Positions 1,349-53,023 are shown, numbered from the stretch's first letter. The stretch: DNA of 64,000 nt from Flavobacterium sp. (GCF_039916025.1 NZ_JBDSMB010000065.1:2135-66134), one strand, 5' to 3'. Translations and numbers: made by a program. The notes: generated by a model not told the origin, from the letters alone.

Positions 1349-2023
1349 TTGATGATAGATAGTGACCAATTTAATGAAGAATTAGGCGAAAATCATATTG
1401 CAACAAGTGCACAGAATCCTGTAAGAAATGATGCGTTTACTTTATCCGATGAACAAAAAATTGAACAAATAAAAAAAGATGTTGAAAATATCCTGCACAC
1501 ACTGGGAATGGATTTAACAGATGATAGCATAAAAGGAACACCAAATCGTGTTGCTAAAATGTTTGTCAAAGAAATTTTCGGAGGATTAAATCCAAATAAA
1601 AAACCAAAAGCTTCCACTTTTGCCAATAACTACAAATATGGTGAAATGCTGGTCGAAAAAAACATCACCCTCTACTCTACTTGTGAGCATCATTTATTAC
1701 CAATAATCGGTAGAGCGCACGTTGCCTATATCTCTAACGGAACGGTTGTAGGACTTTCTAAAATGAACAGAATTGTAGATTATTACGCCAAAAGACCTCA
1801 GGTTCAGGAGCGTTTAACGATGCAAATTGTTCAGGAATTACAACAAGTTTTAGGAACTGAAGATGTGGCTTGCGTCATTGATGCCAAACACCTTTGCGTA
1901 AATTCACGCGGAATTCGTGATGTTGAAAGCAGCACGGTGACTTCTGAATATGGAGGAAAATTCAATGACGAACAAACCCGCAGAGAATTCCTGGATTACA
2001 TCAAATTAGACACCGAATTTTAA
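1349..2023 (+). CDS. folE: GTP cyclohydrolase I
   Basis: [35 protein letters not shown] and HLCVNSRG motifs. Confidence 0.97.
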
Positions 2024-2124
2024 TAGCCCAGATTGACGCGACATCCTTTATTTTTAGGATTGGCCTTTGTGCCAACAAAGGCCAATCCTAAAAATAAAGA
2101 TATAGCAGAAAGCTGGAAATAGCT
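2024..2124. repeat. Intergenic REP-like element with a perfect 25-bp inner hairpin
   Basis: Stem 2046-2070/2075-2099 with 4-nt loop; flanks TAGCCCAGAT..ATCCTTT and AAAGAT..AGCTGGAAATAGCT are homologous to the reverse complement of 52927-53003. Confidence 0.8.
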
Positions 2125-9838: not shown

Positions 9839-11188
9839 CTACTCCTCCACTTTCTTAATCACTTTACGCGCAACTTCAATCTTGAATTTCTTGCCTTTCA
9901 TTTTTTCGTCCCTAATGGCATTTAGTAAATCTTTTACTTTTTTGGATTTTACTGCTGCAAACGAAATGAAATCTTTGACTTCAATCAAACCCAAATCACC
10001 TTTTTCAAGTTTCCCTTTTTGCGAAAAGAAACCAACGATGTCAATCTTGTTTAGTTTATTCTTCTTTCCACCGCTGATATAAATTGTTTGGAATTCCGGT
10101 GGTTTTGGCAATGAATTGGAATTGTCAACATTTAAAACTTTCATGCCGTAGTTGATATAATCCATTTTTTTCTCACTTTCGTGATTAATGATATAAGCCG
10201 TTCCTGTTGTTAACATTCTCGCGGTTCTTCCGTTTCGATGCGTGAATTCATCTTCTTTTGATGGCAGATGATAATGAATTACATGTTTCATTTCAGGAAT
10301 ATCCAAACCACGTGCGGCCAAATCGGTGGTAACCAAATAACTCACACTTCAATTTCTAAACTGGATTAAAGCGCGCTCTCTTTCATCCTGATCCATTCCG
10401 CCGTGATAATACGTAGCATAAATTCCTTTTTCGTTTAACGTATCGCTAATGCGTTCGGCAGCATCACGATGATTACAGAATATAATCGCTGATTCTGATT
10501 TCAATGAACAAATCAAATTGAAAAGCGAATTGATTTTGTCTTTATCTTTAGAAACAACCATCTTCATATCCAGATTGCTGTTCTCTTCATTATTCGGAAT
10601 AAAATCCAAAACGGTCGGATTGACAACTTTGGTATATCTCGGAATTTCAACATCCGAAGTTGCCGAAACCAAAATACGTTTGTTGACTTTGGTCAATCTC
10701 GAAATGATAAACGACATCTGTTCGTGAAAACCAAGCTGTAATGATTTATCAAATTCATCCAAAACCAAGGTTTCGATATAATCCGTTTTGAAAGTTCCTC
10801 TGTCGATATGATCCATAATCCTTCCCGGCGTTCCAATTAAAACCGCTGGTGGATTTGACAGATTCTTGATTTCTGTTTCGATAGAATGTCCGCCATAACA
10901 AACATTTACTTTGTAATTAGTTCCCATTTTTTTCCAAACCTGCTCAATCTGCAATCCCAATTCGCGTGACGGAACCAAAATCAGGCATTGAACCCTGGTG
11001 TTGATATCTTCGTTCAGCATTTCAAAAATTGGAAGTAAAAAAGCAAGCGTTTTTCCCGAACCTGTTGGCGAAAGCAATAAAACATTAGCATCATTCAGAA
11101 TGGCTTCCGAAGCTGTTTCCTGCATTTCGTTTAGCCTTTCAATACCTAAATTCAGAAGTAAATTGTTGGAATGTGGATTTTTATACAT
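9839..11188 (-). pseudogene. DEAD-box RNA helicase with DbpA-type C-terminal domain, interrupted by one in-frame TGA at 10349-10351
   Basis: SPTGSGKT, VPSREL, GTPGRI, DEFD, SAT, TTDLAARGLD and HRNGRTAR motifs; ...IQFRN*SVSYLV... stays in frame, giving 449 codons overall. Confidence 0.9.
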
Positions 11189-12038: not shown

Positions 12039-12947
12039 ATGCATCTTATTCAAAATTTCATCTCAGGAAAACGCAAATACCTGTTTGGGTTGATATTCCT
12101 TTCGTTTGTGTGTATGATCTGTGCGGCTTTCACTATGGAAGATAGTGACGGATTTGACTTTGCCAAAAGGGAAGTTTTAATCCGCAGCATCGGACACGAA
12201 CTACTTTTACAGTCGGGCGATAGCACATCAAGAGTGCTTCCGGTAAAAAAGATTGCAGCCAATGAATATCAAATCAGCTTTGAGAATGAGCTTACTTTTC
12301 AACCGAAATTGCTAATGAATACAACAAGGCGTTTGTTGTCCAAAGACCCGCTCGCACGAGATTATGTTGTTAACGTTCTGAACTGTGATGACTCAAGTAT
12401 AGCCTATGGATATGCCGTATCCAAAAATAAAAAAGATGATGTTGTAACCTGTATAGGAAGAAGACAACCCAAAGCCTGTTACATAATTAACATTAAATTC
12501 AAACCGACAGGAACAACTACAGCAAAAAATGGATATCTTTTGGGCAGCCTCTCATTTTTAGCATTTGCCGGTTTTATTTTTTTGAGATCTGCTAAGCCGC
12601 GAAAAACTTTACCTGACGGTCAACATACTAATATGTTCACTTGGGGATCGGTGTTGTTTGATGCGAAGAATCGTAAACTCATCATAAATGGAGAGACAAT
12701 AGACCTGACCGGAACAGAAGCACGTGTATTGCTCATTTTCGCATTGTCTCCCAATGTTACCATAGAGAGAAGCCGACTGCAAAAAGAGATTTGGGAAGAT
12801 GAGGGTGTTATTGTGGGACGAAGTCTGGATATGTTCATATCTAAACTTAGAAAAAAATTAGAAGTAAATCCCAATATCAAAATTGTTGTGATACGCGGAA
12901 AAGGATACAAACTTGAAATTACACCCGTACAGGCAATTACGAATTAA
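12039..12947 (+). CDS. Membrane-anchored regulator with C-terminal OmpR/PhoB-type winged helix
   Basis: Two hydrophobic segments flank a soluble domain; C-terminal RSLDMFISKLRKKL..IVVIRGKGYKL. Confidence 0.85.
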   Translation: MHLIQNFISGKRKYLFGLIFLSFVCMICAAFTMEDSDGFDFAKREVLIRSIGHELLLQSGDSTSRVLPVKKIAANEYQISFENELTFQPKLLMNTTRRLLSKDPLARDYVVNVLNCDDSSIAYGYAVSKNKKDDVVTCIGRRQPKACYIINIKFKPTGTTTAKNGYLLGSLSFLAFAGFIFLRSAKPRKTLPDGQHTNMFTWGSVLFDAKNRKLIINGETIDLTGTEARVLLIFALSPNVTIERSRLQKEIWEDEGVIVGRSLDMFISKLRKKLEVNPNIKIVVIRGKGYKLEITPVQAITN

Positions 12948-12975
12948 AAATTACGAATTACGAATTAGGAATTAA
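12934..12975. repeat. Heptamer tandem array AATTACG x6 (degenerate)
   Basis: caattacgaattaaaaattacgaattacgaattaggaattaa; same orientation as 11205-11232. Confidence 0.8.
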
Positions 12976-12976
12976 A

Positions 12977-12998
12977 TTGAAAACGCTGTTAGTAGATT
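12977..12998. repeat. Remnant end of an attC-like cassette element (site D)
   Basis: ttgaaaacgctGTTagtag matches ttgaaaccgctGTTagcgg at 16089-16107; GTT starts 18 nt from the stop codon of 13006-13479. Confidence 0.6.
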
Positions 12999-13005
12999 GG
13001 CTTTT

Positions 13006-13479
13006 TTATGCTTCTATTTCAAAAATTTTTATAAAATCATTTTCAAGTTTCTTTTTTTTCCACTTTACAGAAAAATGTAGAAATAGCGCCAAACCAGCTA
13101 TAATTGAGTTCATTATTAAAACTATTTCAAAAGATTCCGATACACTATAAAAAGTCAAATTAAACATAACAAAAGCAATCAGCGGAAAGTATTTGAGCCA
13201 ATAATAGCCGAATCCAATTGGTTTTAGTTCGTAATTTATTTCTGTTTGGTTATTTTTTTTTGATTTGAATTCTCCTGAAATTATAAATGGAGTCGCATAA
13301 ATAATAGTATTTTTAGTTAATTCAAATTTTGTTTTATTGTATGTGCCAAAGAATATTTTCTCAGACTCTCCAAACGCATAAAAGACAGAAAATGGAGTTC
13401 CTAATATCCTTGGACTTCCATACTTGGTGTTTTTATTTAAACGTTCGCTAAATTCTGCAGGGTTTATTTTTGAAATCAT
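13006..13479 (-). CDS. Hypothetical membrane protein (cassette-like)
   Basis: Two C-terminal TM helices; low GC. Confidence 0.7.
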   Translation of the reverse strand: MISKINPAEFSERLNKNTKYGSPRILGTPFSVFYAFGESEKIFFGTYNKTKFELTKNTIIYATPFIISGEFKSKKNNQTEINYELKPIGFGYYWLKYFPLIAFVMFNLTFYSVSESFEIVLIMNSIIAGLALFLHFSVKWKKKKLENDFIKIFEIEA

Positions 13480-14126
13480 TTCTGGTTTTTACTATCAGGA
13501 AACAATTCCTGCGTACGTTTTTCCATTTCACAGGCAATTATTTCTCCGTCGCCACCTTGTTCTGTAAGTTTTGCTTTGATGTTTTTGTAGCTTTCGGCAT
13601 CTCTGTCCTGACTCAATTTAAAAACATGTTCTAATGATGTTACTTCGATTTCAAATGCGACAATCAACTTCATGAGTTTTTGTTTAAACGCTTCATCAAC
13701 ATTGTCAAAATAGGTAGATGATTGTTTGTTATAGCCTTCAAAATGAAGCGTGGTTTTTCTAAGTATGTCAATCAGCGCTTCATCATCTAAAAACTTGATT
13801 AAACCTTTGGCGTGGACCGACATATAATTCCATGTAGAAGCCATATGTGGATTGCTGTACCAGGTCGCGCTGACATAAGTATGATGTCCGGTAAAAACCA
13901 CCAATACATTAGGATTGTGCAAAAACGTCAAATGGTGATCGGTGTTTTTCATGATATGTCCACGCAATATTTTCTTTCCGTTTTCTTCTTCAATAAATAC
14001 CGGAATTTGTGTAGCAATTGGTTTGTTGTCTTTATCGCAACCTGAAATAAACGCAAACGGATTATCGTTTATAAACTGTTTGATTACTTCATCGTTTTTT
14101 TCTTTATAGTCTGGAAGATCGTACAT
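13476..14126 (-). CDS. FMN-binding negative transcriptional regulator (PaiB family)
   Basis: FINDNPFAFI, GHHTYVSATWY, STWNYMSVH and FKLSQDR motifs; start set at MYDLP (14126). Confidence 0.88.
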   Translation of the reverse strand: MYDLPDYKEKNDEVIKQFINDNPFAFISGCDKDNKPIATQIPVFIEEENGKKILRGHIMKNTDHHLTFLHNPNVLVVFTGHHTYVSATWYSNPHMASTWNYMSVHAKGLIKFLDDEALIDILRKTTLHFEGYNKQSSTYFDNVDEAFKQKLMKLIVAFEIEVTSLEHVFKLSQDRDAESYKNIKAKLTEQGGDGEIIACEMEKRTQELFPDSKNQK

Positions 14127-14163
14127 GGTGATTTTTGTTACGAGTAAAAATTGTAATGAGTTA

Positions 14164-14185
14164 TTGGACAAACTGCTGTTGTGCT
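14164..14185. repeat. Remnant end of an attC-like cassette element (site C)
   Basis: ttggacaaactgctGTTgtgc fits the AAACnGCY-GTT end of elements A and B. Confidence 0.55.
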
Positions 14186-14213
14186 TTGGCTTTGTGTGTT
14201 TTAAATTTCTAAC

Positions 14214-14639
14214 TTATGTTATTTTTATGTTATTGTTGATTTCCAATATTTTATTTATAAAAATGTCATTCGTTTCTGGACTAATATAAATTACTTCAAA
14301 TTTTCTATATTTTAAAATTAATCCATTTCTTGCAGTTGCTGGTTTTAAACCTGACCAAAGGGTTTTGGCTTTCATGATTTCTGTAATTTCTTCGATTTTT
14401 ATTTTCCCTCTTATTGGACCACTTTTATATTTTAATTCTGTTTCAGACAATTCATATTCAGTTCCGAAATACAACCAAAATAATAGACCAATCAACATTA
14501 CCATTAAAATAGCTGTGAATATAAATTCAAATTTTTCTCTTTGAAAAAATATTTGAATTAGAATAATTGCGATAAACAATCCACTTAGTCCTAATACAAA
14601 AAATTTAAAAAAATTATCTTTTCTACTTTTGAATTTCAT
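14214..14639 (-). CDS. Bacterial PH-domain membrane protein (cassette)
   Basis: MKFKSRKD start, two TM helices, TEYELSETELKYKSG..KIKIEEI..GLKPATARNGL..IYISP. Confidence 0.8.
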   Translation of the reverse strand: MKFKSRKDNFFKFFVLGLSGLFIAIILIQIFFQREKFEFIFTAILMVMLIGLLFWLYFGTEYELSETELKYKSGPIRGKIKIEEITEIMKAKTLWSGLKPATARNGLILKYRKFEVIYISPETNDIFINKILEINNNIKIT

Positions 14640-14652
14640 CTCTATTTTTTTA

Positions 14653-14794
14653 GGTTGCACACAACGTTCAAGCGCTTGGCAAGGTTGCAAATTTCGGAAC
14701 AAATTATTTTCTGTTAAAGATAAAAAATCTTGATAAACGTGACGTGAACTTACCGCAAAATTCGCATTCTTGCCAAACGGCCGTTGGTGGCAGT
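14653..14794. repeat. Complete attC-like element A
   Basis: AAC(14663-65), 117 nt, GTT(14783-85); inner stem TTGGCAAG/CTTGCCAA; homologous to element B. Confidence 0.8.
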
Positions 14795-14797
14795 TTT

Positions 14798-15910
14798 TTA
14801 TTGTATTGCTTTAATGAATTTTTTCATTTCGTCCATTTTACCAACTGTAATCCTTGTCCATTTACCTTGCTCTTCATAAATTCTTCCCCCTTGAATAGTA
14901 TTGTTTTCTAATTGCTTGAAATAGTCCTTGCTATATTTTGCAAGTGAAAAATAGATAAAATTTGTATTAGAAGAAATGCACTCACAATTTAATTTTTTGA
15001 GTTCGCTGATAGTATATTGTCTTACATTTTCATTTAGCAAGTAGCAATTTGAAACAAATTTATCATCTTTCAACGAAGCTATGGCAGCAAGTTTTGATAA
15101 TACACTAACGCTATTATTTGTATTGGATTGCAAATTTGCCAAATTATCAATTATTGTTTTGTTCGCAATTGCATACCCAATCCGTGCTCCAGCCAAACCA
15201 TATATTTTGGAAAATGTTTTGGCGATAATAATATTTTTGTGGTCATTTACGATATTGCTAAGGGATTGCTGTTTAGTAAAGTCCAAATATGCCTCATCAA
15301 TTAATACAATTGTATTTTGTGAAATCTTGGTTACAAATTCTACCAATGCTTCTCTTTCACAAATTGTTCCTGTTGGGTTATTTGGATTACAGATATAAAC
15401 AAGTTTTGTATCTTGGTTTACAACTTCCAACATAGCTTGCAAATTAATTTTCTTGTCTGCAGTAAGTGGTACATTATTTTTCTTTAAACCTAAATTATCT
15501 AATGTAACTGTCCAATAATCATAGCTTGGGTCTGCGATTACATAATTTCCTTTGTCAAGTGATACAAATTTTGCAACCAAATCTAAAATTTCAGTTGAAC
15601 CAGCTCCCAACAATATGTTTTCATCTTTAACACTATTTCTTTTTGCAAGGTCAGAAATCAGTTGTGTCGCAACATCCCAATTATATCGGTTACTAATATT
15701 CGCATTGTCTACAAATGCTTTCCTTGCTAATGGAGATGGACCATAGGGGTTTTCATTTGAGCGTAAAAAAATTAAGTTATCATGATTTTCTAAATTCTCA
15801 AAAAAGTCTTCTGAGATAACAGGAGATGCATAAGATTTTACATTTGTCAATCCAATGCCTGCAATTCCTAATCCAATTTGTTTTAACCAAAGTCTTCTGC
15901 TATTTTCCAT
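14798..15910 (-). CDS. PLP-dependent aminotransferase class I/II (HisC-like) with a Tat-like signal (cassette)
   Basis: SNENPYGPSP, YICNPNNPTG, IDEAY and KTFSKIYGLAGARIGY motifs; N-terminal SRRLWLK. Confidence 0.88.
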   Translation of the reverse strand: MENSRRLWLKQIGLGIAGIGLTNVKSYASPVISEDFFENLENHDNLIFLRSNENPYGPSPLARKAFVDNANISNRYNWDVATQLISDLAKRNSVKDENILLGAGSTEILDLVAKFVSLDKGNYVIADPSYDYWTVTLDNLGLKKNNVPLTADKKINLQAMLEVVNQDTKLVYICNPNNPTGTICEREALVEFVTKISQNTIVLIDEAYLDFTKQQSLSNIVNDHKNIIIAKTFSKIYGLAGARIGYAIANKTIIDNLANLQSNTNNSVSVLSKLAAIASLKDDKFVSNCYLLNENVRQYTISELKKLNCECISSNTNFIYFSLAKYSKDYFKQLENNTIQGGRIYEEQGKWTRITVGKMDEMKKFIKAIQ

Positions 15911-15970
15911 ATTTCCTTTTTTTTAATTTGACTTTAAAAAAATAGTTTGTTACAACCGCAGAGTGTTAAA

Positions 15971-16114
15971 ATTGCCACCAACGTTCCGACGCTACAAGAA
16001 GTGGCGAACTTCGGAACTGCATATTTTCCACTAAGATAATTTTTCTTGCGAAAGAAAAATATGAATTTAGCAGATTTCTCGCCATTTCTTGAAACCGCTG
16101 TTAGCGGTTCGTGC
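15971..16114. repeat. Complete attC-like element B
   Basis: AAC(15980-82), 117 nt, GTT(16100-02); inner stem CAAGAAgTGGCGA/TCGCCAtTTCTTG. Confidence 0.8.
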
Positions 16115-16116
16115 TT

Positions 16117-17445
16117 TTATTGTTTATTTTTCATTACAATTTCTTTCACGCCTCCTTTTGTCAAAATTATAGAATTGTAGATGCCTGATTTATCCTTTAT
16201 AAGTTCTATTGTTCTGTCATTATTGTTGGCTTTAAAAAATTTCGTTTGTGATTCGGGCAAAAGTTCTGTTTCTGAATTGTTATAATATAGTTTTTCTCCA
16301 ATTTTGATTATTTCAATTTCTCCATACTTGCCTATGTATTTATCATAAATTGAATTGTCTATTTTAGTTTGATAATGTTTGTATGGAAGTTCTATCGGCA
16401 TTTGTAAGGCAATTGCAGAAAGCCCATAAGCAATTATGTACGAAAATGATTCATTGTTAGAAAGTACTGTTACAAAAAGACTATCATCTGTAAATCGGTT
16501 GAGTGAAGTCATTGCTCCAAAAAAACCACCGTCATGAGAAATAAGTTGATGCCCATGATTATAAAATGGATTAATAATAAAACCATATCCCCAATTTTCT
16601 TTGCTATAAGGCGTAAACATTAGTTTTTTCATTTTCTCTGACAAAATTGTTGTTCCATAAAGTGCTTTATCCCATAGGGCTAAATCTTCAACGGTAGAAT
16701 AAACTCCATCATGTCCAATATTGATTTTCCAATTTATATAAGGGTTGTTTGTGTATTTATTATCTTCTAAAATATAATTTTTAGCCTTTTTAGGAATCAA
16801 GATTTCGTTGGTAATCACTCCAGAGTTTTTCATTCCCACTTTTTCAAATATATGTTTGTTTAAATAATCGGCGTATTTTTCTCCTGAAACTTTTTCTATA
16901 ATTTTTGCTAATAAATAATAACCAATATTGCTGTATGCCGTTTTTGTGCCAGGCGAAAATTCATAAGGCATTTTTTTAATTTCATTGTATGCAGAATCTG
17001 CAGACATACTACTTGTTGCTATTTCTTTAAAACCCATTGCAAGGCCTGAAGAATGAGATAATAACATGTGAATTGTGACGCTATCTGCTTTAGGATAATC
17101 TGGGAAGAACTGACTAAGTTTATCATTAAGCGAGAGTTTTCCTTTTTCTACTAATTGAAGAATTGCAGCCGCTGTAAATTGTTTAGTGACCGAAGCCAAT
17201 TGATATTTTGTATCAATTGTATTTTTAATATTCCATTCATAATCTGCTAAACCATAAGCTTTTTTTAGTAAAATTGAACCGTTTTTTGTAACAATAACTG
17301 TTCCGCTGAAATTATTTATTTCGACTTGAGCTTGCATATATTTTGCAAGATTAGTTGATATGTTTTTTTGTCCAAAAATTATTGTTGGAAGAAGAATTAA
17401 AATTAAAGCGATTCCTAATTTTGCGGTTTTACGTATTTTTTTCAT
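16117..17445 (-). CDS. Serine hydrolase, beta-lactamase/PBP-like family (cassette)
   Basis: Signal peptide; SxxK (ASVTK), YxN (YSN) and HDG motifs. Confidence 0.88.
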   Translation of the reverse strand: MKKIRKTAKLGIALILILLPTIIFGQKNISTNLAKYMQAQVEINNFSGTVIVTKNGSILLKKAYGLADYEWNIKNTIDTKYQLASVTKQFTAAAILQLVEKGKLSLNDKLSQFFPDYPKADSVTIHMLLSHSSGLAMGFKEIATSSMSADSAYNEIKKMPYEFSPGTKTAYSNIGYYLLAKIIEKVSGEKYADYLNKHIFEKVGMKNSGVITNEILIPKKAKNYILEDNKYTNNPYINWKINIGHDGVYSTVEDLALWDKALYGTTILSEKMKKLMFTPYSKENWGYGFIINPFYNHGHQLISHDGGFFGAMTSLNRFTDDSLFVTVLSNNESFSYIIAYGLSAIALQMPIELPYKHYQTKIDNSIYDKYIGKYGEIEIIKIGEKLYYNNSETELLPESQTKFFKANNNDRTIELIKDKSGIYNSIILTKGGVKEIVMKNKQ

Positions 17446-17598
17446 TAAAGTTTGAAATTATTTTAGTTAGTATTTTGTCAATTAATTCAACTCATTTTCT
17501 AATAATCTTTTAAGAATTGCATGTTTTTTATGTTTATGATAAGAGTTAATAATTCAATTGCTTTTTGAAGTACAAAGTTTAGAAGTGACTAAAATTTT

Positions 17599-18633
17599 CT
17601 ACAATTGTGATTCTAATTTTAAAATGCGTGCTTTAATTTCATCAGCAGTTAATTCCATTTTAGTATTTGTTTTCAATAAATTTTCAAGTGCAATAATTTG
17701 AGCTTTTATTAACGCTTTTTCAGAACTTATTTTTATATCAGTATCAATACCGATATGTTCCCAATTAGTATTTGTGATTGAGCTTTTTTCAATTGAAACT
17801 GGTATAAATAAATGATATTTGTTGCCAATAAAAAACACTTTTACTGGATTTGCCGCACCATATGTTTTATCTCCAATTATTTTTGCAATTTTATTTTGTT
17901 GTAAATCATATGCTAAAGCTTCAGCAGCAGAAATAGTTTTGTTATTTACCAGAATAAATACGGGTTTACCTATATACTTTTGACCGTTCACTTTTTTCGC
18001 CGTGTAAGCTTTTGTGGTTTTATGATTATACCTTGTATAAGCCTCGCTTAATTTTATTTTATTTTCAAAAAAGTAACTTAAAAAAAGTCTTACCATTTTG
18101 CTATCTCCACCTCGATTGTTTCTTAAATCTATAATCAAAGCGTTTGTATTTGAAACAAAATTCATTGTAGCATCTAAAATTTGTTGAGCAGGTTTATTTC
18201 CTTCGGGAAATCCGGTATATTCAATGTAACCAATATTCCCATCTAATCTCATTACTTTTTCAAAGCCATAATTCCATTGTTTATTAATAGCATCATATTC
18301 TTTTAGCATTTCCTTTTCATTAACTACTTTTTCTTCTTCTTCATTTGGACGGTATAACACATTGAAATGCAAATCATTTCCGTTTTTGGTTAAATAGTTG
18401 GAAAGCGATTTTGCAAATTCTTTATCAGTAAGATTATCAAAAGTTTTAAGTTCTATTTCTGATTTTAATTTTTTAGAAAGTTGATTTGCCACATCTTCGA
18501 AAATGTAGTATTCATTAATGTTATCGGCTATTTCAATTATTTGTTTATTTCGTTCAGTCAAATCCTGAGCATTTGTTTTTAAGTAGAAACTGCTAACAAG
18601 GCTAAGTAATAATAGATTAAATACTATTTTCAT
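17599..18633 (-). CDS. S41-family peptidase
   Basis: GNIGYI, LIIDLRNNRGG, TISAAE, IIGDKTYGAAN and WEHIGI motifs. Confidence 0.9.
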   Translation of the reverse strand: MKIVFNLLLLSLVSSFYLKTNAQDLTERNKQIIEIADNINEYYIFEDVANQLSKKLKSEIELKTFDNLTDKEFAKSLSNYLTKNGNDLHFNVLYRPNEEEEKVVNEKEMLKEYDAINKQWNYGFEKVMRLDGNIGYIEYTGFPEGNKPAQQILDATMNFVSNTNALIIDLRNNRGGDSKMVRLFLSYFFENKIKLSEAYTRYNHKTTKAYTAKKVNGQKYIGKPVFILVNNKTISAAEALAYDLQQNKIAKIIGDKTYGAANPVKVFFIGNKYHLFIPVSIEKSSITNTNWEHIGIDTDIKISSEKALIKAQIIALENLLKTNTKMELTADEIKARILKLESQL

Positions 18634-18637
18634 TTTT

Positions 18638-19075
18638 TTAGATTTTACAATTAGTAATTATTTTATTTAAAGTTTTATTGAGTAAATCAATTTCTTCCAA
18701 TGACAACCCATTTAGTGCTGTTTTTCTGTTTGTTTGGATAATTGGCGACAATAATTCAATTGTTTTTTGTCCTTTTTCTGTGATTTCAAGGTTAAATTTT
18801 CTTCTGTCTAATTCGTTTATTTTTCTTGTCAGATACTCTTTTTTCACCATTAGTTCAATAATTCTAGTAATTGAAGTATTGTCTTTAAAAATCAATTCAG
18901 CTATTTCCTTTTGAGAATAATTAGGATTTTTATTAAGCACAATTAATAATAGACATTGGTCAACTGTTATATCATTTACAATTCTCCCTATGTTTTTCTG
19001 TGAAATTTTTCTATACTCTTTTATTGTTTGTTCAATTGTATAGAGGACTGTTCCTGTTGGATTGCTTTTTTTCAT
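18638..19075 (-). CDS. MarR-family transcriptional regulator
   Basis: ITVDQCLLL, SQKEIAELIFKD and DRRKFNLEITEKG motifs. Confidence 0.9.
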   Translation of the reverse strand: MKKSNPTGTVLYTIEQTIKEYRKISQKNIGRIVNDITVDQCLLLIVLNKNPNYSQKEIAELIFKDNTSITRIIELMVKKEYLTRKINELDRRKFNLEITEKGQKTIELLSPIIQTNRKTALNGLSLEEIDLLNKTLNKIITNCKI

Positions 19076-19082
19076 ATTAAAT

Positions 19083-19130
19083 TAGTTGATGTAAATATAA
19101 TTGATGCAAATATAGTTGTTGTATCAACTA
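19083..19130 (-). promoter_or_regulatory. Putative MarR operator array overlapping the -7 element
   Basis: Three 15-nt-period repeats (gttgatgtaaatata, attgatgcaaatata, gttgttgtatcaact); palindrome TAGTTG..CAACTA; minus-strand TATATTTG at 19107-19114. Confidence 0.65.
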
Positions 19131-19206
19131 AATAAAAATAATTTAACAAATTATTTTTATTTTTTAAAAAAATTGTAGTTTTTTAAATGAGATTTCTGGT
19201 GAGGTA

Positions 19207-19220
19207 GCATGACCGCTAAC
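19207..19220. repeat. Cassette boundary core site (site E)
   Basis: ACCGCTAAC (19212-20) is the exact reverse complement of GTTAGCGGT (16100-08). Confidence 0.7.
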
Positions 19221-19369
19221 ATTATATATGCGCTATTAATTTGTTTCTTCTCTTTCAAATATAATCATTAACTATTACACACGAGCAAAGCGACTGCCGA
19301 AGGAAATCATCAAACAGTTTTGTGTGAAAAATTTTTAAAAATCAAAACTCACACACAAATAAGTTGGCA

Positions 19370-19458
19370 CTTCGACAGGCTCAGTGTGACAGTTAAGTGC
19401 GATTGTGTTTTCCAGTATTACAATTAAAAAGATAAATGTCAGTCTGAGCCTGTCGAAG
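19370..19458. repeat. REP-like inverted repeat element
   Basis: CTTCGACAGGCTCAGTGTGACA / TGTCAGTCTGAGCCTGTCGAAG, 20/22 complementary, 45-nt spacer. Confidence 0.85.
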
Positions 19459-19482
19459 ACTTTCTTTAATAAAAAGAAACTA

Positions 19483-52926: not shown

Positions 52927-53003
52927 AGCTAATCCGGCTGTTCGTTGCAATCTTTTCTTTTTTAAAGAAAAAAAGAAAAGGATTTCCACTGCCATCCGGG
53001 CTA
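52927..53003. repeat. Intergenic REP-like element, same family as 2024-2124
   Basis: Reverse complement reads TAGCCCGGATGGCAGTGGAAATCCTTTT..AAAAGATTGCAACGAACAGCCGGATTAGCT. Confidence 0.75.
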
Positions 53004-53023
53004 GGGCACTCTATTTTAAATTG

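Follow-up and report, generated by a model that had tools for sequence, protein, structure and literature searches.

The 64,000-nucleotide stretch of Flavobacterium sp. analysed here (GCF_039916025.1, NZ_JBDSMB010000065.1:2135-66134; hereafter the window) holds, at 12979-19245 on the minus strand, what is very probably a decayed, recombinase-less array of an integron-like cassette system widespread in Flavobacteriaceae and Weeksellaceae. The array lies in a low-GC island, with 25-31% GC at 12.8-19.4 kb against 35-39% in the flanks. Seven accessory genes, all on the minus strand, had been proposed for this region in a first-pass annotation made from the sequence alone, and open reading frame (ORF) calls together with Pfam confirm both their number and their strand. 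From head to tail, the features of the array and its genes are as follows.

19304-19314, minus strand: possible remnant of a recombinase 3' end, TTTGATGATTT, encoding ..FDDL (11-mer identity)
19255-19265, minus strand: promoter-like TAnnTTTG box, ATTATATTTGA (also written TATATTTG), aligned with the TATnTTTG of relatives and pointing into the cassettes
19218-19245, minus strand: attI-like site at the head of the array, AATAGCGCATATATAAT/GTT, whose GTT (19220-19218) begins cassette 1
16100-19220, minus strand: cassette 1 with three genes (MarR, peptidase S41, beta-lactamase-fold hydrolase), bounded by GTTAGCGGT and ACCGCTAAC
18638-19075, minus strand: MarR regulator (Pfam)
17599-18633, minus strand: peptidase S41 (Pfam)
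16117-17445, minus strand: beta-lactamase-fold serine hydrolase (Pfam)
15971-16111, minus strand: attC-like element B, composed of an R'' box, a 118-nt hairpin body and an R' box (covariance model R1, 116.1 bits, E 4e-23; folding z-score -4.0)
14783-15982, minus strand: cassette 2, a class I/II aminotransferase
14798-15910, minus strand: class I/II aminotransferase gene (Pfam)
14654-14794, minus strand: attC-like element A (covariance model R1, 128.9 bits, E 6e-26; folding z-score -2.9)
14178-14665, minus strand: cassette 3, a PH-domain membrane protein, from the R' box of A to a truncated attC half
14214-14639, minus strand: bPH_4 membrane protein with a bacterial PH domain (Pfam; probable ATG at 14639, stop at 14214)
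14169-14189, minus strand: truncated attC 5' half, CCAAAGCACAAC-AGCAGTTTG (AAC-AGCAG-TTTG at 14169-14183)
13006-14126, minus strand: probable former cassette content, an FMN_bind_2 gene and an ORF without assigned function, in array orientation, of low GC and with truncated attC halves on either side
13476-14126, minus strand: FMN_bind_2 gene (Pfam)
13006-13479, minus strand: ORF without assigned function (ORF call)
12979-12998, minus strand: candidate second truncated attC 5' half, AATCTACTAAC-AGCGTTTTC, one base shorter than the consensus (read from the sequence)

Elements A and B are homologous 142-nt imperfect hairpins that occupy intergenic gaps on the minus strand, and they are the only two full copies recovered by covariance model R1 in the window. 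Their folding z-scores refer to the minus strand, measured against shuffled sequence. In integrons, the bottom strand of attC recombines in folded form and IntI reads its extrahelical bases. The predicted hairpins contain bulges and an asymmetric internal loop (1 nt against GGAAC), and the helices of B carry compensatory changes of their own. Joining A to the aminotransferase cassette's own R' box shifts the predicted fold energy from -24.1 to -31.9 kcal/mol.

Six boundary strings picked out in the first-pass annotation are all in place with the complementarity ascribed to them: GTTGGTGGCAGT (14783) and ATTGCCACCAAC (15971) are reverse complements at 11/12 positions, GTTAGCGGT (16100) and ACCGCTAAC (19212) at 9/9, and GTTGTG (14178) and CACAAC (14660) at 6/6. 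The reverse complements of the two long boxes occur once each in the 64-kb window, and each core flank (10-12 nt) does find its complement at the far end of its gene block and not in the opposite arm of its element. The aminotransferase boxes GTTGGTGGCA and TGCCACCAAC agree at all of the first ten positions (10/10), clearly significant against a control mean of 6.2/10. The MarR block reaches 9/10, which is convincing only together with the adjoining attI-like site, and the 6/6 of the PH block becomes 6/10 when extended, equal to background, its end being supported instead by the truncated attC half. Of the four blocks proposed to be bounded by GTT/AAC cores, three remain delimited, and the fourth (13006-14126) has only eroded attC halves on both sides. 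A stop codon within 3 nt of the extended box is found at 14798 (3 nt) but not at 16117 (8 nt).

Behind the PH cassette, as behind the last gene pair, only the first 12-13 nt of an attC remain. The half at 14169-14189 is the third and only other AAACNGCNGTT match in the window and lies in the expected intergenic gap and orientation; the full-length covariance model finds no match there. The half at 12979-12998, which also has no covariance-model match, was compared with the family consensus ..CTAAC-AGGCG-TTT and would mark the tail end of the array. The two genes between these halves were probably cassette content at one time and are locked in place because their attC sites are truncated. Cassette 1, measuring 3.1 kb and containing three genes, is atypically long.

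Both elements have many relatives. Searching a collection of species-representative genomes with a pattern based on their 3' arm gave matches in at least 120 genome stretches, nearly all from Flavobacterium and many with several copies within a few kb; other hosts are Chryseobacterium, Halpernia, Epilithonimonas and unnamed Bacteroidota metagenome-assembled genomes (MAGs). Three matches outside Bacteroidota (Gemmata, Pseudohoeflea and Spirulina) were set aside, being absent among the best 300 of 353 model hits, and their number fits a rough estimate of ~4 chance matches for the pattern. Alignment of 91 non-redundant copies spans 144 columns with a mean column identity of 85%, and AAC and GTT are invariant, 118-119 nt apart. 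Covariance model R1, built on this alignment, recovers 353 copies in the first 100 loci (loci carry L numbers below), and an nhmmer profile recovers 390 in all loci; further copies of the element, whose absence would have told against a shuffled system, are thus abundant. Copies within one array are all in direct orientation, with at least 15 of them downstream of a single recombinase gene on F. difficile contig 8.

The core consensus of the family is GTT-R-K-N-N-G. As many as 336 of 341 R' boxes fit GTTR and only 24 (7%) fit GTTRRRY, in agreement with the earlier description of the cores as non-canonical. No Rfam family matches the element. It is essentially chromosomal, with five viral-contig hits, no phage record and one plasmid among mobile-element records. 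The sole plasmid copy (NZ_CP041688.1:14546-14671, 87% identity) is from Chryseobacterium sp. SNU WT5 of rainbow trout, and the match region carries no annotation.

RNAalifold on the 91-copy alignment gave a partial consensus only; the helices were written by hand and their pairs counted. Pairing holds in 82.6% of the cells of this structure; with the partner column slid, the figure drops to 28-39%, and none of 500 shuffles attains the observed covariation. Compensatory substitutions are present in two outer body helices (GGCG/CGCC, GCCG/CGGC and CACG/CGTG; GGC/GCC against CTCG/CGAG). Every element also contains a heptamer, TTGCGAA, with two copies of its complement, TTCGCAA (alignment A2 columns 28-34, 60-66 and 106-112; about 14762-14768, 14727-14733 and 14684-14690 in element A). 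These heptamers permit two alternative hairpins, and TTCGCA stands directly 5' of the attI-like core in several relatives. They are candidate binding sites for the extra N-terminal domain that the array-linked recombinase carries, as described below.

Pairing across genes was measured over 192 adjacent, co-oriented element pairs by comparing the 10 nt from the GTT of the upstream element with the reverse complement of the 10 nt ending at the downstream AAC. Across one cassette, at least 9 of 10 positions match in 147 pairs (77%), and in 95% of cassettes shorter than 700 nt. The controls give means of 6.1/10 for the two boxes of the same element and 6.2/10 for boxes one cassette further. A match of this kind is what recombination at a single point beside GTT produces. 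Among the 147 well-delimited cassettes, the median length is 688 nt and coding sequence makes up 90%; the stop codon lies ~16 nt before AAC, and ORFs follow the array orientation in 114 of 125 cases (114 vs 11). Peptidase S41 genes recur in arrays from several species (L031:6728-7999, L045:4100-5368, L061:128-1396 and L071:5446-6810; window 17599-18633); other array genes encode MORN-repeat proteins, an N6/N4 DNA methylase and an APH-type phosphotransferase.

The elements are short, structured and intergenic, with high conservation and many copies, and could be taken for repeats of the miniature inverted-repeat transposable element (MITE) or repetitive extragenic palindrome (REP) type, spread by transposition and with incidental flank matches; a large MITE survey reports many cMITEs in Flavobacterium (PMC11602168). 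Such an origin is hardly credible here. Compared directly, the flanks agree at 2.18 of 7 nt (2.28 with shuffled partners), and this lack of target-site duplication excludes transposition of the element itself. The flank complementarity spans the gene and not the element, and the copies keep one orientation per array and a fixed station ~16 nt after the stop codon, in arrays that begin at a recombinase and an attI-like site.

Cassettes are found in different contexts in different genomes. Superimposing the aminotransferase cassette on F. soli L069:5408-6608 reveals 88.9% identity over 1202 nt, in an alignment that spans one base before GTT to the C of AAC and is flanked by unrelated sequences. 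Lake, river and soil metagenome contigs carry cassette 2 at high depth without the neighbouring cassettes and break at 14785 and 15983. Among the loci there are four more pairs of homologous cassettes that match over their full length, and the neighbours are unrelated in both comparable pairs (L065/L093 and L081/L088). Gene order is therefore not fixed across relatives, the same cassettes being seen with different neighbours, and the homology breakpoints fall at GTT/AAC in the F. soli copy and in the metagenome contigs.

Strong hairpins directly after stop codons also suit terminators, insulators or small-RNA genes, a role that could coexist with recombination. As a sole explanation, with no mobility, this has next to no probability: it is already contradicted by box complementarity and the F. 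soli exchange, and it leaves unexplained the complementarity across cassettes, the GTT/AAC breakpoints between species and the link to a recombinase and an attI-like site. There is also no T-run after the hairpin, in addition to the absence of an Rfam match.

The head of the array resembles a platform that is conserved in relatives. There, a conserved sequence, CATATAAAC[AG]A/GTT (short form CATATAAACAA/GTT), lies 100-125 nt after the recombinase stop in 10 relatives, with a conserved TATnTTTG box just after the stop codon (~20 nt downstream). The window minus strand at 19245-19211 reads ..AAATTAATAGCGCATATATAAT/GTTAGCGGTC, close to the site of L096 (AATAGCGCATATAAACGA/GTT). At 12 sites, including the window, GTT and the following 7 nt agree in 9-10 of 10 positions with the R'' box of the nearest attC downstream (9/10 in the window, with element B), so cassettes are joined to this site as to an attI. 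The adjacent TAnnTTTG box is presumably the Bacteroidetes -7 promoter box. The core ATATAAACAA/GTTAGC (e.g. L050:3025-3050; window 19218-19245) presumably resembles the class 1 attI1 simple site, CTAAAACAAAG/TTRRRY.

Beyond the box, the 11-mer TTTGATGATTT is identical to the last recombinase codons in L032, L041, L051, L053 and L079 and stands in the expected order with the box and the attI-like site; the match, short and weak alone, is suggestive of a remnant of the recombinase gene. The expected position of that gene is filled by a 90-nt inverted repeat and a NUDIX gene. The repeat (19370-19459, CTTCGACAGGCTCAGACTGACA ... TGTCACACTGAGCCTGTCGAAG), with the NUDIX gene on one side and the attI-like remnant on the other, resembles a dispersed hairpin of the REP/MITE type; it may be connected with the disappearance of the recombinase gene.

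No recombinase homologue is encoded in the window, as the first-pass annotation had it, and the source metagenome, compared with a relative's recombinase gene, yields only short conserved-box fragments at low depth. In relatives, a tyrosine recombinase does stand beside the arrays, co-oriented with them. Clustering of all locus ORFs revealed one such family, present in 12 of 120 8-kb chunks and located upstream of the elements on the same strand in 11 of these 12 loci. The protein, ~347 residues long and matching Pfam PF00589 and PF13495, is abundant (at least 120 clusters at 79% identity or higher) and is named in the sources 'XerD' or, by NCBI, 'site-specific tyrosine recombinase/integron integrase'. 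Decay occurs elsewhere too. In L014, L020, L040 and L107, the part of the chunk that was read shows no recombinase gene ahead of the attI-like site, and two loci have a pseudogene, frameshifted in L001:852-1891 and without the N-terminal half in L026:818-1324.

The best NCBIfam model for the recombinase is NF040815 (XerA / 'integron integrase'), at 212-231 bits with a cut-off of 220, followed by TIGR02249 (integron integrase), at 189-214 bits in two stretches with a cut-off of 265. Archaeal XerA aligns in a single piece. Alignment with VchIntIA (2A3V) places residues 80-250 on 9-179 and 271-347 on 242-318, so that residues 250-271 stand opposite 179-242 and ~40 residues of the IntI-specific additional domain, which contains the I2 helix, are without counterpart. 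The catalytic boxes GLR, HWLRHSYATHLLE and LGH...IYTHV are present in the alignments. The AlphaFold model (pLDDT 78.6) shows no extra helix in the IntI-specific interval and an additional beta-beta-alpha-beta-beta-alpha domain at the N terminus, residues 1-56. Foldseek ranks XerA first, as the closest solved relative, and IntI4 second. Alignments and predicted fold together mark the protein as a XerA/IntI-like recombinase without the integron-integrase additional domain.

These properties bear on whether A and B are ordinary attC sites of a canonical integron remnant, an integrase-less degraded array (CALIN) served by a true IntI elsewhere in the genome. In favour of this reading, architecture and hybrid R''/R' signature agree with integron cassettes, the NCBI family name includes 'integron integrase', and TIGR02249 is the second-best NCBIfam match. 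We nevertheless consider this improbable, given that the recombinase falls below the TIGR02249 cut-off and skips ~40 VchIntIA residues, that only 7% of cores fit GTTRRRY, that In0 elements and one Salinibacter integron are all that the IntegronFinder papers list for Bacteroidetes (PMC4889954, PMC9024848), and that a 2024 preprint lists Bacteroidota among clades previously without any integrons (bioRxiv 10.1101/2024.07.02.601686). Surveys place integrons mostly in Proteobacteria and almost none in Bacteroidota (PMC9024848; bioRxiv 10.1101/2024.07.02.601686), and tyrosine recombinases without intI_Cterm are not counted as IntI (PMC4889954, PMC9024848); the missing IntI-defining domain probably explains the near-zero integron reports in the phylum. 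A CALIN is defined by at least two attC sites lying close together without a nearby integrase. In the window, 1.2 kb separates the two intact elements and none of the 64 kb encodes a recombinase homologue, the sites being called with a purpose-built model and not with the IntegronFinder attC model.

The same properties bear on Xer/dif modules, in which the housekeeping XerC/XerD would act on double-stranded dif-like sites at the element ends. The recombinase is Xer-like, with XerA as best match, and the conserved body suits sequence-specific double-strand binding. Acinetobacter pdif modules are alike in being discrete gene modules bounded by Xer-family sites and found in different contexts. 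They are, however, delimited by 28-bp double-stranded plasmid sites in alternating orientation, with neither a dedicated recombinase nor an attI, whereas the Flavobacterium elements are 142-nt chromosomal hairpins in direct orientation, nearly absent from plasmids (one hit), with a dedicated recombinase that carries an extra N-terminal domain and stands at the array head beside a distinct attI-like site. Boxes of 7 nt that vary and remain complementary also argue for base pairing over reading of the sequence by a protein. A housekeeping Xer/dif origin is accordingly a long shot.

The first-pass proposal of a shuffled integron-type cassette system with non-canonical cores is borne out by the family, the breakpoints, the recombinase and the attI-like site; gene order varies, further copies exist and the homology breakpoints lie at GTT/AAC. 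The system shares with integrons an attI-like site adjoining the recombinase, AAC/GTT hairpins with R''/R' complementarity and short co-oriented cassettes. Judged by sequence, it is integron-like rather than a canonical integron, lacking the IntI additional domain and the GTTRRRY core. In intact relatives, the locus is laid out as a 347-residue Xer-type recombinase, a TAnnTTTG box, an attI-like site and co-oriented cassettes, each cassette running from GTT and 7 variable nt to the complementary 7 nt and AAC, followed by a 118-nt conserved hairpin body.

In the proposed mechanism, strand exchange by the recombinase would take place at the invariant GTT of attI-like and attC sites or right next to it. 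Once excised, a cassette would be circular, its own two boxes pairing as a 10-bp stem on the hairpin, and the circle would re-enter at the attI-like site or at another attC, insertion at the former placing the cassette behind the TAnnTTTG box. The variable box positions differ between cassettes yet stay complementary, and the body helices covary; base pairing therefore appears to matter, which argues for a folded substrate. In the window, the recombinase gene has probably been lost, with three cassettes still delimited and two genes locked in place. The locus looks like an inactive, eroded array, and its genes came in as cassettes.

Several observations weigh against this mechanism or against its reach in the window. 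No recombination event, circle or empty site was observed, and assembled contigs of the source sample are uniform in depth across the array. The window contains only two intact elements, the box match of its PH block is at background level, and the recombinase-gene remnant consists of the 11-mer only. The attC body, unlike that of most attC sites, is conserved in sequence across genera, which could point to a double-stranded, sequence-specific reaction. The I2-containing additional domain is described as necessary for IntI activity by Messier & Roy 2001, as cited in PMC9668308, and I2 is credited with single-strand recombination (PMC7790495); for a recombinase without I2, a folded single-strand mechanism is therefore not to be assumed. 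Absence of I2 together with a body conserved across genera, its three heptamer copies included, argues for a mode of recognition that differs from that of IntI and could be sequence-specific or double-stranded. Some attC copies are, moreover, chimeras of two subtypes, which suggests that homologous recombination between bodies also reshuffles the arrays and could account for part of the exchange. Examples are L007:487-629, L007:5736-5877 and L031:5144-5285; in such copies one subtype supplies the 5' arm (GCCG-TTTCTCGC, for instance) and another the 3' arm (GCCAAG-CGCC), which leaves the helix unpaired.

The closest known counterparts are the sedentary chromosomal integrons of the Vibrio cholerae repeat (VCR) type. 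These have a recombinase and attI at the head of long co-oriented arrays of short, mostly promoterless cassettes, imperfect-hairpin attC sites of ~120-140 nt that have AAC/GTT cores and are similar within an array, and R'' boxes that pair with the R' box at the start of their own cassette; integrase-less degraded arrays occur as well. The Flavobacterium recombinase differs in lacking the additional domain (I2 helix) of IntI, in possessing an extra N-terminal domain of about 70 residues and in being co-oriented with the cassettes. Its cores are GTTRKNNG and not GTTRRRY, its paired boxes extend over 10 nt instead of 7, and conservation of its attC body extends beyond the single array to other genera and families.

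The 'inverted integrase' integrons of Treponema denticola, other Spirochaetota and Chlorobi are chromosomal and non-proteobacterial, with an integrase co-directional with the cassettes. They share direction and chromosomal location with the Flavobacterium system, but carry the IntI-specific domain that its recombinases lack and are detected by IntegronFinder. In CTX-phi, Xer without an I2 helix integrates the hairpin of a folded single-stranded DNA at dif, from which it follows that I2 is not strictly required for recombination of a folded single strand. CTX-phi, by contrast, relies on host XerC/XerD and a single site, with no cassette arrays, attI or dedicated recombinase.

Taken together, we lean, by a modest balance of probability, towards an undescribed genus-wide integron analogue in Flavobacteriaceae and Weeksellaceae, with a XerA/IntI-like recombinase that never gained or has lost I2, an extra N-terminal domain and attC sites conserved across genera. 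No description of such Flavobacterium or Bacteroidota arrays was found in the literature searched, the coverage of which is incomplete, so that an earlier description is possible. In the current view, integron integrases arose from a Xer-like enzyme active on double strands, which became a single-strand recombinase on acquiring the I2 helix (PMC7790495), and a full integron layout with a recombinase that lacks I2 is a natural test of that scenario. If active, the system would mean either that hairpin cassette recombination is possible without I2 or that a complete cassette system operates on double-stranded sites. It would then represent a natural outgroup or an independent invention for integron origins, and the near-absence of integrons in Bacteroidota would be a detection artefact. 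Annotation pipelines need a second attC model and a second integrase profile. For soil, freshwater and fish-associated Flavobacteria, the arrays open up a large and unexplored reservoir of mobile cassettes, represented in the window by a beta-lactamase-fold hydrolase, a peptidase and an aminotransferase; for the window itself, the message is more modest than for the family.

The immediate left neighbour of the array is an OmpR-type regulator gene, and the helicase gene, by which the first-pass annotation bounded the interval, lies further left. This DbpA-type DEAD-box helicase gene (9839-11188, minus strand) is interrupted by one in-frame TGA at 10346-10351, in the context ..RALIQFRN*SVSYLVTTD. 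The position is one that we take to be DEAD-box motif V, normally Gly (GGA), and the TGA may stem from a nonsense mutation, recoding or a sequencing error. On the other side, the NUDIX protein, sought in other assemblies, matched a single 4.3-kb contig with the same arrangement. In a MAG contig, L083:3-458 encodes a NUDIX protein 79% identical to that of the window and is adjoined by a family element at 1413-1546, which points toward the NUDIX gene, not away from it; the contig (1.5 kb of sequence) stops there.

No tRNA gene that could serve as an integration target was found in the window. A short repeat of the AATTACGAATTACGAATT type, at 12935-12975 by the array tail and again at about 21234, appears to be a dispersed repeat, and metagenome contigs pile up and break there. 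It also gave rise to a spurious 6.4-kb deletion joint (12964 to 19369, in a contig) that would remove the whole island; this joint was set aside, its support amounting to 24 nt of dispersed AATTACGAATT repeat sequence. In keeping with flavobacterial DNA, two genes for Flavo-1 RNA (Rfam RF01705) lie at 2021-2123 (plus strand) and 52927-53006 (minus strand), scoring 61.9 and 79.7 bits.

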